Positions 5,756 through 63,567 of a stretch of 64,000 nt of DNA are shown here, one piece after another. The translations under genes and the position numbers were made by a program. This DNA is from a virus. Lineage: Duplodnaviria > Caudoviricetes. Below the pieces are notes generated by a model. It was not told the DNA's origin. It made no database searches and saw nothing but the letters and a program-made list of their open reading frames with translations. The stretch lies in IMG/VR virus record IMGVR_UViG_3300031414_000007, positions 32,001 to 96,000 of that record; one strand, 5' to 3'. Every line of letters begins with the position of its first letter. The first letter of the stretch is position 1.

Positions 5756-6091
5756 ATGAACTACGATCCAAAGAAAGATTTCCACCCGTTTCAATATCTG
5801 GGCGCACCTAAAGTCCCGCACACAGGCTTCTTAGGCAATACAGTGAACTTGGTTGAGAACGACGTAAACATCGGCAGCGATGAATGCACGTTCGAGTTCA
5901 CTGTAGCTCAGATGAACGCGATGGACAGAGGTACTGTTACGTTCAGGGCGAAAGACTCTGGCGGTGGTATCGACATTAAGAAATGCTCAGTCTCAGGTTT
6001 GAAAATGGTAATTAAGCTGGACAGAAGGGTGATCGAGTTCGGCAAAGTTCAAGTCGAATGGCAGACCACTCCTCGCCACTACTATTACTGA
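5756..6091 (+). CDS. hypothetical protein, possibly late/virion
   Basis: AGGAG RBS; preceded by UUCG hairpin and TAATTT motif. Confidence 0.7.
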   Translation: MNYDPKKDFHPFQYLGAPKVPHTGFLGNTVNLVENDVNIGSDECTFEFTVAQMNAMDRGTVTFRAKDSGGGIDIKKCSVSGLKMVIKLDRRVIEFGKVQVEWQTTPRHYYY

Positions 6092-31663: not shown

Positions 31664-32716
31664 TTACATCAAAAACCGTCGCTTTATCACCACAGCGTCG
31701 TAGGCATTCAATGTTGCAGCAGGCACTTCATTGGGATTTATGTCTGAGGCCGCATTGAAATCAACACCCGCTTTGGATAGAACAACGTACACTGGAGCGT
31801 CACGCTCGAATGCTATCGGCATCGCTCCCCACTTTAGTGCATAGGCAGGAGTATCGTCATGGGTGCCTTGTCCGAAGTATGCCCCGTCAGGCTCTGAGGC
31901 AGAACTGCCGAGAGAACCCGCTGAATACGACGTGGTGTAAGACCAGCCCCCACCGGAGAAGTAGTACGAGCCATAAGTTGATGAACTGAATGGTTGAAAC
32001 AGTCTCGGGAAGATCGTATCAGGGAAGGTACTCTGATTGTACGGAGAACCCGCATACAACGAACTCAGAGTCTGCACGTTAATCGTTACGGTGGCTATAT
32101 CGGCAGTTACATTCAACGCAGTGATTCCCACGTTTTGCAGATAAGAAGATCCTGTCCGTGTCCATCGCCCTATGCCACTACCCCCGCCTCCAGTGATAGT
32201 ACCTCCATCACTTGAAGTCACACTGGCAGATGTTTTAGGGACAGAGTAAAGAGACTTCGTAAACGCTGAGCCGTCGAATGCAGGCAGAACCATATCAGAA
32301 TAAGCGGGTACGCTAGGACTTCCGTTACCGTACGAATCCAGCAGACTGCCTGTACCTTCCTGAGCTGTACCGATGCCAGAGTCTAACGTACCTATAGCAT
32401 AGTAACGACGGAACATGTCAATAGCGCTGACAACGCGATTACCACCAGTCTGAGAAAACCCAGACTTACGGACAGAAGGCACGTAGTTATAGAATAGGCG
32501 ATTACCTTTCCAGCCAGCACCACGAACGCATTGCATTTCATTCTGAGCATTAACAAGAGCGCAGAAGGAGCGAGACTTATTGATCTTGTCAATCATCTCA
32601 GGATAAGACGACTTACTCGTTGGAGGCTCAACATCATCAGAGAAAAGGAACATGCGACGACGAGCCGTCTCAATCTTCTTCTCTAAGATTTGCGCTCCGT
32701 TTGAAATGAAAAGCAT
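31664..32716 (-). CDS. virion fibre-family paralog (long, divergent)
   Basis: MFLFSD..PP; LKWGAMPI...AGVDF. Confidence 0.6.
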   Translation of the reverse strand: MLFISNGAQILEKKIETARRRMFLFSDDVEPPTSKSSYPEMIDKINKSRSFCALVNAQNEMQCVRGAGWKGNRLFYNYVPSVRKSGFSQTGGNRVVSAIDMFRRYYAIGTLDSGIGTAQEGTGSLLDSYGNGSPSVPAYSDMVLPAFDGSAFTKSLYSVPKTSASVTSSDGGTITGGGGSGIGRWTRTGSSYLQNVGITALNVTADIATVTINVQTLSSLYAGSPYNQSTFPDTIFPRLFQPFSSSTYGSYYFSGGGWSYTTSYSAGSLGSSASEPDGAYFGQGTHDDTPAYALKWGAMPIAFERDAPVYVVLSKAGVDFNAASDINPNEVPAATLNAYDAVVIKRRFLM

Positions 32717-59753: not shown

Positions 59754-60176
59754 TTACTGTGCCCTCATTGCAAACGTAATTGATTGTTTGTCTTCGAGCT
59801 TAGGACAACGCCATGTGATTACACACACGTAGGTCTGCTCGTATTGATCGCTCATGGTGCAGGCTGTCTTGACGCTGGTTACGTCCTGCGTGAGACCGTT
59901 GTATGGGTCTTCTAGGGCAAGACGCATGTACGTTGCAATCCAGTCAGCCGTTGTTTGATCGAACGGCTCAAACAGATACTGATATACATCGGCACCGAAG
60001 TTCTCACGCCATTTGCGAGACTTCTTACGCGTACCGATTACCATCAGTATCTTCTGGACGATGCTGTCCATGTTCTGCACGTTATCGCGCGGTTCAAGTT
60101 GAATCCACGCATTAATATCACAATAGATGCGCTCGCTAATCGGCACATCTATCAGACGAACTCCGATTCCAGCCAT
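59754..60176 (-). CDS. baseplate wedge subunit, gp25-like
   Basis: SIVQKILMVIGT-K-SR-WR-NFG-DV-QYLFEP-D. Confidence 0.88.
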   Translation of the reverse strand: MAGIGVRLIDVPISERIYCDINAWIQLEPRDNVQNMDSIVQKILMVIGTRKKSRKWRENFGADVYQYLFEPFDQTTADWIATYMRLALEDPYNGLTQDVTSVKTACTMSDQYEQTYVCVITWRCPKLEDKQSITFAMRAQ

Positions 60177-60466
60177 TAGCCAAATCTCACATTAGAACTA
60201 CCACTCGAAGCTGTGTCGCCGCAACTGTTAGCGTCACCAGCACGTTGCGCAGGCTTACCGTTGACACGCACACTAGAACTTGAAGTAGCTTTCCCGACAT
60301 GAGGAGGCTTCTTTGGTTTCCAGTGAGGACGATAACTATCGCCTTGACGAACACTCCCTTTTCCATTCACAAGCACGTTAGAAGATGCCTGAGCAGGGAC
60401 AACAGGAAAATAACCATTGTGTCCAGTAGACAGATCTGTGCCTAAACGAATAGCTTTCTGACCCAT
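60176..60466 (-). CDS. PAAR-repeat tail spike tip protein
   Basis: LSTGH...ASSNVLVNG...RQGD...H...VNGKPAQRAGD...CG...GSSNV. Confidence 0.9.
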   Translation of the reverse strand: MGQKAIRLGTDLSTGHNGYFPVVPAQASSNVLVNGKGSVRQGDSYRPHWKPKKPPHVGKATSSSSVRVNGKPAQRAGDANSCGDTASSGSSNVRFG

Positions 60467-60489: not shown

Positions 60490-60495
60490 AAATTA
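60490..60495 (-). promoter_or_regulatory. TAATTT late-promoter-like motif upstream of PAAR
   Basis: Same hexamer starts 28-41 nt upstream of several structural gene starts, usually just after a hairpin. Confidence 0.55.
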
Positions 60496-60511
60496 GCTTG
60501 TTATGCAGTAG

Positions 60512-60546
60512 AAACGAAAACGGGCAACCCGAAGGCCGCCCGTTTT
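60512..60546 (-). terminator. intrinsic terminator closing the large RNA
   Basis: GGGCGGCC-TTCG-GGTTGCCC-GTTTTCGTTT; G-U pairs valid only on - strand. Confidence 0.85.
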
Positions 60547-60576
60547 CTTTGCTTGGATTTGTGTCGCTTAACTCCC

Positions 60577-60735
60577 TCACACCCGAAGCGAGTGCTCGGT
60601 AGCCGAAGCCACTAAGCCGGAGTTAATGGCCGAGAGTGAAGCCGCACGGCGCGGCAACAGCATGTGACTCTCGGGACCAGATAGCAAGCGACCAAGCATC
60701 GCAATTGCTATCAACGACACGAAGAACAAAATCAT
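60577..60735 (-). CDS. 52-aa sORF with hydrophobic N-terminus inside the structured RNA
   Basis: AGGAG-caaac-ATG; MILFFVSLIAIAMLGRLLSGPESH...HSLRV. Confidence 0.45.
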   Translation of the reverse strand: MILFFVSLIAIAMLGRLLSGPESHMLLPRRAASLSAINSGLVASATEHSLRV

Positions 60736-61791
60736 GTTTGCTCCTGTGTCTCTACTGTAAGGTAAAACATTTGCAAATGTCGATCAAGTTACTTCAAGTT
60801 GCCCTTCGCCCAACTTCACTAGGGTTTCAACTCTCTTTCTCTCGTTACCGCCTGGGTTGCGGAGACCGCGCACAAGAACAACGCTTCAACGATACGTGGG
60901 CAGGAAGACACGTACCGTATTCACATCGCTCAAGCGAAGGAGGTTACCCATCGGTGATCTGCGGTGGTTAATACACTCTTTAACAATCGCTCTTGTTGTG
61001 CATTAGATCGTGGTAGGAACGCGATTGACCGCTAACAAGTCCTATACGATATTTCACTACCCGAGAATGGGTATCAGCTATGGCAGCACGTCAACAGCAG
61101 CGGGGCAGCGGACACACTCCATTAAGCATTGTTAAGGGCAATGCTCAACAGGCTGTGAACAGCTTTGACCAAATGCAGAGTCGCTCGTCGCCCGACTTCA
61201 CTTGAGTATCTCGTCTGCACTCTTTTACTCCCTGAATACCGTACAAGGAAGACGGCACCCATGAGGGTCTGCGGATGTTTATCACATTAAGACTCTAGCC
61301 AACTTAATCCCGTACGCAGTGTGTTGAGTCGTCCGCTGGATGACACACTACATACCCCCTCACGTTCGTGCATAAGTGGGATATAGCTGGTGGAAGGTTG
61401 TCATGAAGATTGCATCGCCTGGAGGCCTGCCGTTCTTCCCAATGCACACACGGTGAAAGGCATATGTGCATCAGGCAGCGTAGCTGCAAACTGCTATCCC
61501 GATAAGAGGGGCCACAACGTTGAGAGTACGTTCCGCCTGTCTTACGCGCCTAGAGGCAACTGCCGTGCCATGTCTGAAAAGAATGAAAAACGCTGGGCCT
61601 TGTGAGCGTCAGCAGCAGAGCAGCAGTCTATCGCGTGGGTGCTGGGGTTAATCCTCACGATTACAGAGCATCACACTCTAACCAGCTGGAGGCTTGCCTA
61701 CTGTGGAACGCAGCGACAAGTTTACAGTCAAACAACGTCCGCTAAGTACGCCATCTGACTGGGACAAGTTGATATTACTATCTGCAATTTT

Positions 61792-61803
61792 TATTTACAG
61801 ATT
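61792..61803 (-). promoter_or_regulatory. AATCTGTAAATA motif, copy 4 (putative promoter of the large RNA)
   Basis: Exact reverse-complement match directly after the stop codon of 61804-63567. Confidence 0.7.
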
Positions 61804-63567
61804 TTAGAACGCCTTACGCTCAATATTTGAATAAAGAGTATCGTAAGGTTCTGAGTACAGTTCAGGTCCGCGTTGTGCGCGAATCGTCACGTAGCCTGTG
61901 TGACGGTTGAACGCTGTGATTTCGACAGTCGGCTGTTTAGGCTTGATAGTCGCATAAATCGGAGCATTCAACGTTGGCTCGTCTGTCTGAATCTTATTTA
62001 CAGATTGCAGTGCAGCGCCAGAGATAGCAGGCAGATTAAAACGCAGTTCAGCACGTTTCTGGCCGAATGCCGCGCGAATCATACCGTTCTCCAACTCTAC
62101 ACCGTTCTGCTTGAGATATGCAGCGATGCGACGTCCGATACCAGTAAGCTGATCGCGAGTGCGCGGGTCAAACGTGCCTTCGAAGCTGATTGCTTCTGCT
62201 GGCTGACGTACAGACAAGTGCAGGCCCGTGTTGAAATAGCCTTCGGTAAGCAGACGCAGGATTTCTTTCACGACCTCTTTGGTGTTCGTCTTGATAGCAG
62301 CGATACGCAGCTCAGGAACGTCCACTTTAATCGGGTCACGAAGCTCGGTCTGGTTGTCCATATAGCCGAGTGAGATATGCTTCGCATTGGCATACGTGTG
62401 TTGCAGCACACCAGTCGCGCGAATCAATACAGAGCCACCTTTTGCGAGGTCATAAAGTTCATCGCTGGTGGTTGTGCTGAACAGGTAATAGTCCGTAGGT
62501 ACGGCCATGCGATTAACAGCTTCAATCGCTTTGGTCTGAGCTTCTTTGACAGTTGAGCCAAAGACTACGCGACTACGATTCGGCTGGGCAGCAGATACAG
62601 GGAAAAACGCACCATAGACAACGCTAACGTTTTTCTTAATCGGACGCTCAGACTGAATCTTCTTACCGCCAGGCAGAGACGGTAGCTTAACGCCCACCAG
62701 CTTACCTTTGACGATAGCTTTGTTCTCTTTTACCGGCTTGAGGCTGTCAATGAGTTTCGCCAGATCAGCACCGCTAAGAATCTTCTCCAGCGGAACAGCG
62801 AGGTTCTGCGGCAGATAGTGTTTCTTGCGGAACATATAGATAACGGTGTCTTTCTTGATCTGCACTGGCGTAGCCATGTTGCGACCAACAACACCGACCG
62901 GCTGGAACGTGTTTGCTTTGTCATCACCGATAGAGCCGAACTGCTTAGTGAACTCAGTCTGGCCGATGATGTTAGCAGCACGTAAATGGCCACGAATGAT
63001 GAACACGATTTTCGGGTCATCTTTCATGCGCAACTCGTAGCGGTCACGGTTCAGATAAACCATGCTGTACTTGTCGCCTTTCTCCAGCTCCAGATCGTAC
63101 TCGTCGTTAGCGTCATCAACAACGACTTTCTTACCTACGTAGGTACCGTAAGTGCGCGGGCCAGCAGACTCAGAAGCAATCTGCAATGCTTTGCCACTGT
63201 TAGACAGAGAGGCAGCGAAGTCCATAACAGCGGGCATCAGGTCTAAAGACGATGCTACAGCGTATGGCTTGCGCTTCTCACCAAGATGCAAATGAACAGC
63301 GCTACTGCTGGACATGAATACGGTTGTGCCTACATCTTCGTGTGTACCAGCGAAGTGCATACCGCTAATACGTTCGATGATGTTTGCGTTGAGCGATTGG
63401 AAGTTTACTTCGCTGCCTGCGGTGAAGTCATAAATTTCACCGTTACGCCACGCATAGGCAACGTTGTTTGAGCTTAGACCCACGAACGCATCACCCAACT
63501 GACGCACGGTCAATGGCATGATGCTCAGGTCACGAATAATCGAGGACTGCTTTTGAATGAGGTTCAT
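61804..63567 (-). CDS. hypothetical protein, likely virion-associated
   Basis: 587-aa ORF, AGGGA RBS, in structural block. Confidence 0.78.
   Translation of the reverse strand: MNLIQKQSSIIRDLSIMPLTVRQLGDAFVGLSSNNVAYAWRNGEIYDFTAGSEVNFQSLNANIIERISGMHFAGTHEDVGTTVFMSSSSAVHLHLGEKRKPYAVASSLDLMPAVMDFAASLSNSGKALQIASESAGPRTYGTYVGKKVVVDDANDEYDLELEKGDKYSMVYLNRDRYELRMKDDPKIVFIIRGHLRAANIIGQTEFTKQFGSIGDDKANTFQPVGVVGRNMATPVQIKKDTVIYMFRKKHYLPQNLAVPLEKILSGADLAKLIDSLKPVKENKAIVKGKLVGVKLPSLPGGKKIQSERPIKKNVSVVYGAFFPVSAAQPNRSRVVFGSTVKEAQTKAIEAVNRMAVPTDYYLFSTTTSDELYDLAKGGSVLIRATGVLQHTYANAKHISLGYMDNQTELRDPIKVDVPELRIAAIKTNTKEVVKEILRLLTEGYFNTGLHLSVRQPAEAISFEGTFDPRTRDQLTGIGRRIAAYLKQNGVELENGMIRAAFGQKRAELRFNLPAISGAALQSVNKIQTDEPTLNAPIYATIKPKQPTVEITAFNRHTGYVTIRAQRGPELYSEPYDTLYSNIERKAF

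Follow-up and report, generated by a model that had tools for sequence, protein, structure and literature searches.

A conserved structured RNA with predicted tandem modules, encoded among the virion genes of Enterobacterales jumbo phages

The stretch of DNA considered here (hereafter, the window) comprises 64,000 nucleotides (nt), i.e., positions 32,001 to 96,000 of the virus record IMGVR_UViG_3300031414_000007 (Duplodnaviria; Caudoviricetes), and belongs to an Erwinia jumbo phage. A gap of 1337 nt separates there a gene for a 587-amino-acid (aa) protein (61804-63567, - strand) from a gene for a 96-aa PAAR protein (60176-60466, - strand), and an initial annotation, made from the sequence alone, had proposed that this gap encodes a giant structured RNA of about 1.27 kb. 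We have hardly any doubt that a conserved, strand-specific structured RNA family is really encoded at this place, as was claimed, and this family of large phage RNA is new. Its architecture is, however, not that of the single 1.27-kb fold which had been described. The RNA is instead predicted to consist of three tandem homologous copies of one pseudoknot/three-way-junction module, of ~300-370 nt each and ~1.05 kb together. The whole inferred transcript (60510-61786, ~1.28 kb) would thus carry a 5' hairpin, modules I to III, a small open reading frame (sORF), and a terminator. Unless another strand is given, all the features described below lie on the - strand.

The existence of the structure is carried by comparative evidence. 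We compared the window by blastn with 50,697 phage records, and fetched and aligned 15 homologous loci. The consensus fold calculated by RNAalifold from these 15 sequences reaches an energy of -562 on the - strand, against -267 to -301 (mean -285+/-10) in eight column shuffles; a coding alignment of the same phages and the same length gives -391, and its own shuffles -326 to -343. Compensatory pairs, i.e., pairs changed on both sides with no more than one broken sequence, amount to 81 in the RNA, as compared with 8-21 in the shuffles and 17 in the coding control. Moreover, 11.2% of the predicted pairs fall within the top 0.1% of scores of a G-test with average product correction (APC), vs 0.1% of the other column pairs, a 112-fold enrichment against which it must be weighed that the alignment holds ~10 effectively independent sequences and that many non-structural column pairs also score high. 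The ranks of the all-against-all G-test were discarded as evidence, the very top being dominated by phylogenetic co-variation, and the enrichment alone was taken as informative.

The - strand is preferred as the RNA strand. Indeed, the alignment fold of the reverse complement has an energy of -469, and the minimum free energy (MFE) of the single sequence is -464 kcal/mol on the - strand (z -3.6) and -411 on the opposite one (z -0.5), the coding control having a z of -1.8. The helices contain numerous invariant G-U pairs, which would be C-A on the opposite strand. The fold energies, these G-U pairs, the sORF, and the U tract of the terminator all point to the - strand, for which the initial annotation had already argued from G-U pairs.

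All four long helices named in the initial annotation were recovered, each with compensatory pairs: 61471-61461/61452-61442 as 61474-61461/61451-61439 (13 base pairs (bp), 6 compensatory), 61355-61343/61324-61312 as 61354-61345/61322-61313 (10 bp, 9 compensatory), 61147-61139/61131-61123 as 61151-61139/61131-61119 (13 bp, 9 compensatory), and 60918-60909/60898-60889 as 60927-60917/60899-60889 (10 bp, 5 compensatory). Compensatory changes also uphold the GUGGC-UUCG-GCUAC hairpin and the 3' multibranch domain. The GG-GUAA-CC hairpin with a GNRA loop, placed at 60949-60942, had to be abandoned: it is not conserved, and its loop reads GCCA, GUCA, or GGGA in other phages. Its bases belong to a long-range helix (60955-60947/60856-60847), of which they make up the 5' strand; this helix is 100% paired and changes from GGG/CCC to ACG/CGU. 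Near the start of the RNA, a 5' hairpin (61725-61762), whose stem compensates between phages, carries UAGCGGAC in its loop. This loop has a candidate pairing with GUCCGC at 61113-61108 (61742-61737/61113-61108; 87% paired), in which both sequences are nearly invariant.

The modular organization emerges from the recurrence of the same elements in the same order, i.e., an H1 hairpin, a pseudoknot, a three-way junction with the arms H4 and H5, a small hairpin, and a long hairpin, H7. In the pseudoknot, AGCNGG in the loop of H1 pairs with CCNGC of a downstream block, GUG-N3-4-AAC-NN-CCNGC-AG. Module II (61104-61358) has its H1 at 61354-61345/61322-61313, with 9 of 10 pairs compensatory; its pseudoknot joins GCGGA (61336-61332) to UCCGC (61275-61271), and the variants GCGGA/UCCGC and GCGGG/CCCGC occur. 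Its closing helix, GACC 61269-61266 with GGUC 61170-61167, is 100% paired, with three of the four pairs changed on both sides, and 85% of the cells of the junction are paired, as against 26-43% when the partners are slid. It is completed by arm H4 (61265-61253/61241-61228, ~30 nt), arm H5 (61222-61204/61186-61171), which bears the conserved loop AAGUGAAGUCGGGCGAC at 61203-61187, and H7 (61151-61139/61131-61119), with the loop GCCCUUAAC. Module III (60679-61061) comprises H1 (61050-61040/61018-61007), a pseudoknot between GCGGU 61032-61028 and ACCGC 60965-60961, and an additional H2 (61003-60998/60976-60971). Together these three helices are 95.3% paired, compared with 29-51% for slid partners, and their covariation score is 0.339 as against at most 0.093; the pseudoknot itself is paired in every cell (100%), one of its positions showing three pair types, and reads GCGGU/ACCGC, GCGGG/CCCGC, GCAGGG/CCCUGC, or GCUGGU/ACCAGC. 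The closing helix of module III pairs GAUC 60959-60956 with GAUC 60785-60782; its arm H4 (60955-60947/60856-60847) is long and branched (~100 nt), its arm H5 (60833-60796) has the loop AGUGAAGUUGGGCGA, and its H7-like hairpin (60713-60698/60692-60679) lies inside the sORF.

Module I (61384-61692) is a divergent copy without H2. Its pseudoknot pairs GCUGG 61686-61682 with CCAGC 61646-61642 (variants GCUGG/CCAGC, GCCGG/CCGGC, and GCAGG/CCUGC), its junction is closed by 61639-61637/61500-61498 (CCC/GGG), and its arms H4 and H5 lie at 61636-61615/61568-61544 and 61542-61529/61519-61505; the stem of H5 covaries, and its loop differs from that of the other modules. The loop of its H7 (61474-61461/61451-61439) is GCCUUUCACC. 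In all three copies, the central pseudoknot pairs change together, independently in each copy. In the module consensus, the loop of H5 is conserved (15-17 nt, AGUGAWGUYGGGCGA), and its stem, as read from the sequences, varies between phages as CCCU/AGGG, CCAU/AUGG, CUCU/AGGG, CUCA/UGAG, CCUA/UAGG, or ACUC/GAGC.

Homology between copies is also detected by profile methods. The nhmmer profiles of modules II and III match each other colinearly (E 2e-8 to 1e-6 for H5, ~0.01 for the 5' block), and a covariance model trained on module III alone finds module II in phage Y3 and in a metagenomic relative with E ~0.01. The homology of module I is supported by motif and architecture, and it tells against it that the covariance models miss this copy. 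A search for further copies in the phage's own genome (210.5 kb, 79% complete) found none; the model used solely for this search, R1, was made from a MAFFT alignment of 31 modules and is itself without any base pair, so that it reads sequence only.

The same module is found outside the triplicated RNA. We searched for AAC-N1-3-CNGC-[A/T]G preceded, within 140 nt, by a complementary AGCNG, a signature whose background in the 64-kb window is 7 false matches per 128 kb of strand, and we combined these pattern scans with covariance-model matches to count the copies. The module occurs at the same locus in six lineages, with one to three copies in Yoloswagvirus, Rivsvirus, Salmondvirus, a Yersinia phage, and metagenomic relatives; it occupies non-coding space right after the homolog of the 587-aa gene, on the same strand and behind a AATCTGTAAA motif. 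One copy is present in Yoloswag, SNUABM_5, the IMG/VR contig L162, and Yersinia phage fHe-Yen9-02 (there at the end of the record), one or two in JA11 and in the IMG/VR contig L164 (same as L169), two in JA29, and three in the IMG/VR contig L165. Thus, size is not a defining trait of this RNA, which the initial annotation had called giant: related phages have just one or two copies.

A covariance model obtained after one iteration (R3) gave 32 matches in 200 kb searched on both strands, all 32 at module positions. Outside its training set, it recovered module II of the window (61264-61359, E 3.4e-5), two further modules of L165 (0.0045 and 0.059), and, at higher E values, modules of JA11 (0.19), JA29 (0.5 and 0.8), and L162 (0.8), as well as the second module of L164 (0.89). 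In the model-fitted alignment of 31 distinct modules, each of the 10 pairs of H1 has both partners changed and takes 4-6 pair types; the proportion of paired cells is 92.6%, and the covariation score reaches 0.651, vs at most 0.138 for slid partners. We preferred this alignment to a contiguous-stem test of H1 in single sequences, which proved too crude because bulged stems fail it (32% at p<=0.05). Distant modules keep a recognisable H5 (e.g., AGACCUG-UUUCAGUGGGGAGA-CGGG) and an H7 loop reading GCCCUUAAC or GCUUUCACC. It counts against this wider homology that the modules of Yoloswag and SNUABM_5 are not matched by R3 and were assigned from the pattern and the shared H5 and H7 elements. The module appears to be an old, mobile unit of this jumbo-phage clade, predating the triplication. 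The modules of JA11, JA29, and an IMG/VR relative contain an inserted hairpin with GUAUUCGAAUC, which resembles a tRNA T-loop (L018:5700-5760, L019:5975-6035, and L165:6725-6790, in the coordinates of the fetched loci); Alexandravirus modules are devoid of it.

The complete RNA has a narrower distribution. Among the phage records searched by blastn, the region was matched in 45, which all stem from jumbo phages of Erwinia or Dickeya and in which the size and synteny of the gap are kept. Identity to the window is 99.3% in pEa_SNUABM_30, other members of Alexandravirus are 70-86% identical over the full length of the region, and Sasquatchvirus (Y3) and the SNUABM_14 group match it in parts. Homologs upstream of PAAR, which the initial annotation had suggested collecting, were found, and in all 15 fetched loci the same two genes flank a gap of 1267-1357 nt. 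Pairwise identity in the RNA alignment ranges from 54 to 99%, and size and position are kept in Alexandravirus, Sasquatchvirus, and the SNUABM_14-group phages. Taking the 587-aa protein as query in IMG/VR and metagenome scans added four further lineages. Two IMG/VR contigs of metagenome 3300013825, L031 by its end and L039 by its start, share an overlap of 105 nt, 103 of them identical; when joined, they give a full copy of the RNA, in a phage whose 587-aa protein is 63% identical, and the assembly of this relative seems to be broken inside the RNA. A scan of IMG/VR with the 15-mer CCGCAGATCACCGAT gave 112 matches, mostly by chance, and its use was limited to the joining of these two contigs. 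In distant genera, a full-length nhmmer profile recovered the terminator alone. No similarity to the RNA was found in E. coli genomes, and host mimicry was rejected on this ground.

Several signals delimit the RNA as a unit of transcription. The motif reported at its start is there, as an exact copy of AATCTGTAAATA at 61803-61792, and the RNA would begin ~6-10 nt downstream (~61786). This 12-mer is invariant in 16/16 homologs and also lies downstream of the 587-aa gene in distant genera. The window contains 5 exact copies for 0.2 expected, and the 210-kb genome 13 for 0.03 expected, mostly 17-62 nt upstream of open reading frame (ORF) starts. When near-matches are included, 14 of 17 sites are outside long ORFs, one of them directly after a terminator, and 11 of 17 have an ORF start on the same strand 17-109 nt downstream. 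The motif resembles the T4 late promoter, TATAAATA. From these statistics, from this likeness, and from the sigma factors reported in related phages, we infer that AATCTGTAAATA is a phage-specific promoter. Phage-encoded sigma-70-like factors have indeed been reported for PaBG and its relatives, with Y3, AD1, and Alexandra discussed in that context (PMC7412058). The sites often overlap short inverted repeats, e.g., ATCTG...CAGAT or AATCT...AGATT (at 6091, 11509, 14686, and 19092 on the + strand and at 61803 and 62006 on the - strand of the window), and one of them (62006-61995) falls within the 587-aa gene, at its 3' end, 200 nt ahead of the copy that belongs to the RNA.

At the other extremity, the intrinsic terminator described with a UUCG loop (60510-60547) stands: it has a 14-bp stem, this loop, and a U tract, and it is conserved, with compensatory changes in its stem and loop. 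It is the only strong terminator between 58000 and 64000, and JA11 and JA29 have a homolog of it immediately before PAAR (E 1e-9). Beyond it and outside the RNA, a second promoter-like motif, GCTAATTT, is located at 60490-60497, 23 nt upstream of the PAAR start, and AAGCTAATTTGTG is invariant between the terminator and PAAR. Of the 14 copies of GCTAATTT that the genome contains, 11 precede an ORF start by 6-42 nt; two follow terminators directly, one of these at the next operon boundary. This motif probably marks a promoter class distinct from AATCTGTAAATA, and PAAR and the baseplate genes appear, from this motif, to have their own start of transcription. Since the RNA has a AATCTGTAAATA start and a terminator, and PAAR a separate GCTAATTT motif in front of it, the RNA looks self-contained, and we consider it likely to be its own transcription unit; the signals that the initial annotation had read as a promoter and a terminator are thus in place. 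What weighs against this is that the promoter call was made from motif statistics and the likeness to T4 late promoters.

Public sequencing runs provide some information on expression. Among the runs that contain the sequence, six are RNA libraries, and four of these give contigs covering the region. In the libraries X15 and X16, contigs 99-100% identical fall only inside the RNA (60901-61057, 61192-61357, and 61010-61221), and the rest of 20 kb of virion genes is uncovered; in two runs with a ~93% identical relative, the RNA, which is 6.5% of the stretch compared, receives 3 contigs out of 8 and 2 out of 7. These contigs fit an abundant or stable RNA, as weak evidence, against which stand their low depth, the choice of the runs by this very sequence, and a possible carry-over of DNA. 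X15 and X16 are an insect metatranscriptome and an oligo-dT marine transcriptome.

The absence of a credible long ORF in ~1.3 kb, noticed at the outset, holds. No ORF of more than 60 aa in the gap is kept in position or strand across the homologous loci; the only ORF conserved in position is the 52-aa sORF, and the RNA region shows no codon periodicity. Indeed, its variable columns are evenly spread over the three codon phases (0.73/0.74/0.72), vs 0.90/0.46/0.34 in an equal length of the 587-aa gene of the same phages. The identity is 71% in the RNA region and 78% in the flanking gene, and conserved blocks alternate with compensating helices. Several deposited genomes carry "hypothetical protein" coding sequences (CDSs) inside the region (e.g., pEaSNUABM18_00119 and 00118; L009:2428-2992, L003:2887-3036, L011:2989-3150, and L004:2468-2611). 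These are very likely annotation artefacts because their strand and position vary between genomes.

The RNA is nevertheless not purely non-coding, as had been assumed. Its last ~250 nt read as the message for a conserved hydrophobic peptide of 52 aa, MILFFVSLIAIAMLGRLL..., encoded by the sORF (60577-60735), which the 3' domain overlaps and which had been missed. The sORF is open in 15/15 homologs, with 47-53 aa and 15-nt indels that keep the frame, and an AGGAG Shine-Dalgarno (SD) sequence precedes it in 12 of 15. Its N-terminus is a hydrophobic helix, M(I/L)LF.VSLIAIAMLG; over the first ~20 codons, the second positions are conserved as expected of a membrane helix, and the ratio of nonsynonymous to synonymous substitution rates (dN/dS) is ~0.5. 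The remainder has a dN/dS of ~0.9 and no phase pattern, and its 3' half overlaps covarying hairpins (60674-60570). A further hairpin (60716-60750; 10 pairs, 94% paired, many of them G-U), also present in the single-sequence MFE fold, buries the AGGAG and the start codon. Homologs of the peptide, some annotated and others not, are encoded just upstream of PAAR by small genes of Yoloswag (gp109), SNUABM_5 (SNUABM_5_00115), and two metagenomic phages, where a separate AATCTGTAAA motif precedes the gene and the RNA module is absent from this position. Searches of Pfam and PHROGs gave no match for the peptide. On balance, the sORF is probably a real small gene sharing the transcript of the RNA. Two corrections to existing annotations follow, i.e., the spurious CDSs inside the RNA and this sORF family of 47-53 aa beside PAAR, which is mostly unannotated.

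As for function, we favor, with about as much doubt as belief and from sequence-based arguments, a late stand-alone unit whose RNA would be a trans-acting, multivalent scaffold or decoy and not a cis leader. The ~1.28-kb RNA would be made late, together with the virion genes, and would work chiefly as a folded RNA; its modules would be autonomous folding units displaying identical loops, and the loops of each module would bind copies of one protein partner or dock modules together. The number of modules would set the valency, and the outcome could be an assembly scaffold, a decoy or sponge for a host factor, or a self-assembling RNA. Multivalent binding or docking is suggested by a copy number that varies while the loops stay invariant. 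A role in trans is favored over a cis leader because the gene following the modules is not conserved (the sORF here, gp112 or gp111 homologs in other genera) and because the gp111 homolog and the sORF occur without modules. In the phage of the window, the homolog of Yoloswag gp111 (67% identity; G000:C1:25811-25993, + strand) is inside a 147-aa ORF outside the window, at a distance of 67 kb from the RNA, and is not accompanied by a module. Two observations run counter to the trans reading: the last module is, in each lineage, either overlapped by an ORF or followed by the start of one at a distance of at most ~60 nt, and the loop-loop complementarities that we noticed are invariant, which leaves them as candidate contacts.

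The first of these observations fits equally a cis-acting 5' leader, a possibility that we regard as appreciable though clearly on the unlikely side. The modules would then be sensor or regulatory domains controlling the translation or the decay of the downstream ORF, in the manner of riboswitches, protein operators, or stability elements, and tandem copies would sharpen the response, tandem aptamers being known in glycine riboswitches and T-boxes. The burial of the SD sequence and AUG of the sORF in a conserved hairpin also speaks for such control. However, the regulated gene would have to vary between genera, this phage has its gp111 homolog elsewhere without a module, and in Yoloswag-like phages the sORF homolog is preceded by a promoter of its own and by no module. 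Furthermore, a leader of ~1 kb is disproportionate to a 52-aa peptide, and no expression platform alternating with the module helices is seen in the alignment. More speculatively, and by analogy, the trans-acting RNA could have modules that are protomers self-assembling into a pseudo-symmetric late particle or ring, which we find rather improbable. Docking could occur through conserved loops, e.g., GUUGGGC of H5 with the H7 loop GCCCUUAAC. If this were true, three linked copies would be used in Alexandravirus and separate transcripts in single-copy phages, with a role in virion assembly (baseplate or tail) or packaging, as a covalent counterpart of the ROOL and GOLLD cages or of the pRNA ring.

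A ribozyme or self-processing RNA, in which each module would be catalytic, e.g., cutting the array into monomers, or would be a degenerate intron-like element, seems very unlikely to us. Folds of ~300 nt with a pseudoknot and a junction are typical of large ribozymes, the tandem units are equal in size, and the AGCGG/CCGCAG pairing is reminiscent of P/Q (P4) in group I introns. Yet no Intron_gpI, RNase P, or small-ribozyme match is obtained at E<=10, the helix order (5' strand of H1, 5' strand of the pseudoknot, 3' strand of H1, 3' strand of the pseudoknot) is unlike the P3-P7 topology of group I, there are no flanking exons, and the RNA contigs have no clean joints at identical sequence. A group I intron proper was rejected on the missing Intron_gpI match, this different helix order, and the complete and separate flanking genes. 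We give little credit to an antitermination or attenuation leader of the ~40-kb virion operon, which would read through the terminator like HK022 put or EAR: no further AATCTGTAAATA is found on the - strand in the 39.5 kb of downstream virion genes, and a strong terminator stands between the RNA and PAAR, but the idea is weakened by the presence of GCTAATTT before PAAR, a motif that recurs before other genes of the block and twice right after terminators, and by other genera having several ORFs and another promoter motif between module and PAAR. Finally, that the region is a decayed gene, a spacer, or a DNA element such as a replication origin or a packaging site is most improbable and largely refuted. 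Short hypothetical CDSs annotated there by some depositors would speak for it, but they differ in place and strand between genomes, codon periodicity is absent, the region is conserved almost as well as the flanking gene, a G-U strand asymmetry is senseless for double-stranded DNA, and there are neither direct repeat arrays nor an AT-rich unwinding region in a gap whose GC content (0.50) is that of its flanks.

The neighboring genes place the RNA among virion functions. PHROGs confirms PAAR and, downstream, gp25-like and gp6-like baseplate wedge genes. The sole Pfam match of the 587-aa protein upstream is a KMPT-N domain (residues 141-201), and its AlphaFold2 model (predicted local distance difference test (pLDDT) 72) has no fold match in the PDB; with no more than this, a functional tie of this protein to the RNA was dropped. 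Between the RNA terminator and PAAR, AD1, 2910A, SNUABM_33, and SNUABM_3 have a basic ORF of ~40 aa (MCR.TDW...PK.P; L005:3833-3956, L006:3826-3954, L008:3823-3945, and L017:7589-7714), homologous to SNUABM_5_00114 and lacking in the phage of the window.

The family is considered new because no Rfam match was found, which the initial annotation had named as a support for novelty, and because no paper describing the RNA was found in the literature searched. Running cmscan with Rfam 15 at gathering scores over the whole window gave no match to any family, and at E<=10 the RNA region gave just three chance-level small-RNA matches; none of the models of GOLLD, ROOL, pRNA, tmRNA, RNase P, 6S, Intron_gpI, and known riboswitches matched. 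Because the number of copies varies from one to three between related phages, the modules provide a handle on function, these phages being natural domain-deletion and domain-duplication variants. The RNA is moreover experimentally tractable, as its carriers include cultured lytic phages under biocontrol development, with Erwinia amylovora and Dickeya solani as hosts.

Comparison with known systems brings out both likenesses and differences. The 3' part recalls type I toxin mRNAs such as hok and tisB by a small hydrophobic peptide with an N-terminal membrane helix, by a ribosome-binding site masked together with the start codon in a conserved hairpin, and by a structured mRNA. It differs from them in that the 30 C-terminal residues evolve nearly neutrally (dN/dS ~0.9) and that the sORF belongs to a phage late-gene context, with homologs adjacent to PAAR in every genus; no gene for an antisense RNA was found, and the opposite strand has no strong promoter or terminator. 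With the core of group I introns, the module shares a GCGG/CCGCAG type of pairing in a pseudoknotted fold of ~300 nt, but its pseudoknot topology is another, and exons, P7 and G-binding elements, and a homing endonuclease are absent. Like tandem riboswitches and T-box leaders, the RNA has repeated structured domains ahead of an ORF with a maskable ribosome-binding site; on the contrary, its modules match no known aptamer and are two to three times the usual aptamer size, the downstream genes are not conserved, and no alternative terminator/antiterminator pairing is tied to the modules.

The pRNA of phi29 is also a phage-encoded structured RNA used in repeated units, and a context of virion assembly is plausible for both. 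That RNA is of ~120-174 nt, early, and multimerises in trans as a ring by loop-loop pairing, whereas the copies found here are covalently linked, of ~300-370 nt each, and without an Rfam pRNA match. Descriptively, the RNA belongs with the large ornate phage RNAs, as a class and not as a homology family: it exceeds ~500 nt, has covarying helices and pseudoknots, and includes ~1.05 kb without a conserved ORF. We know of very few natural RNAs above 1 kb with a dense, covariation-supported tertiary architecture outside ribosomal RNA and introns, and, to our knowledge, GOLLD and ROOL still have no known function. ROOL and GOLLD are described in a preprint as forming multimeric RNA-only assemblies (bioRxiv 10.1101/2024.12.08.627333). 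With GOLLD and ROOL, the present RNA shares a size above 500 nt, an intricate fold supported by covariation, a location in phages, and the lack of long ORFs. It departs from them by being built, as predicted, of tandem repeats of one module in variable copy number, by lying among virion genes behind a late-type promoter motif and not beside tRNA arrays, and by carrying a conserved sORF in jumbo phages of Enterobacterales.

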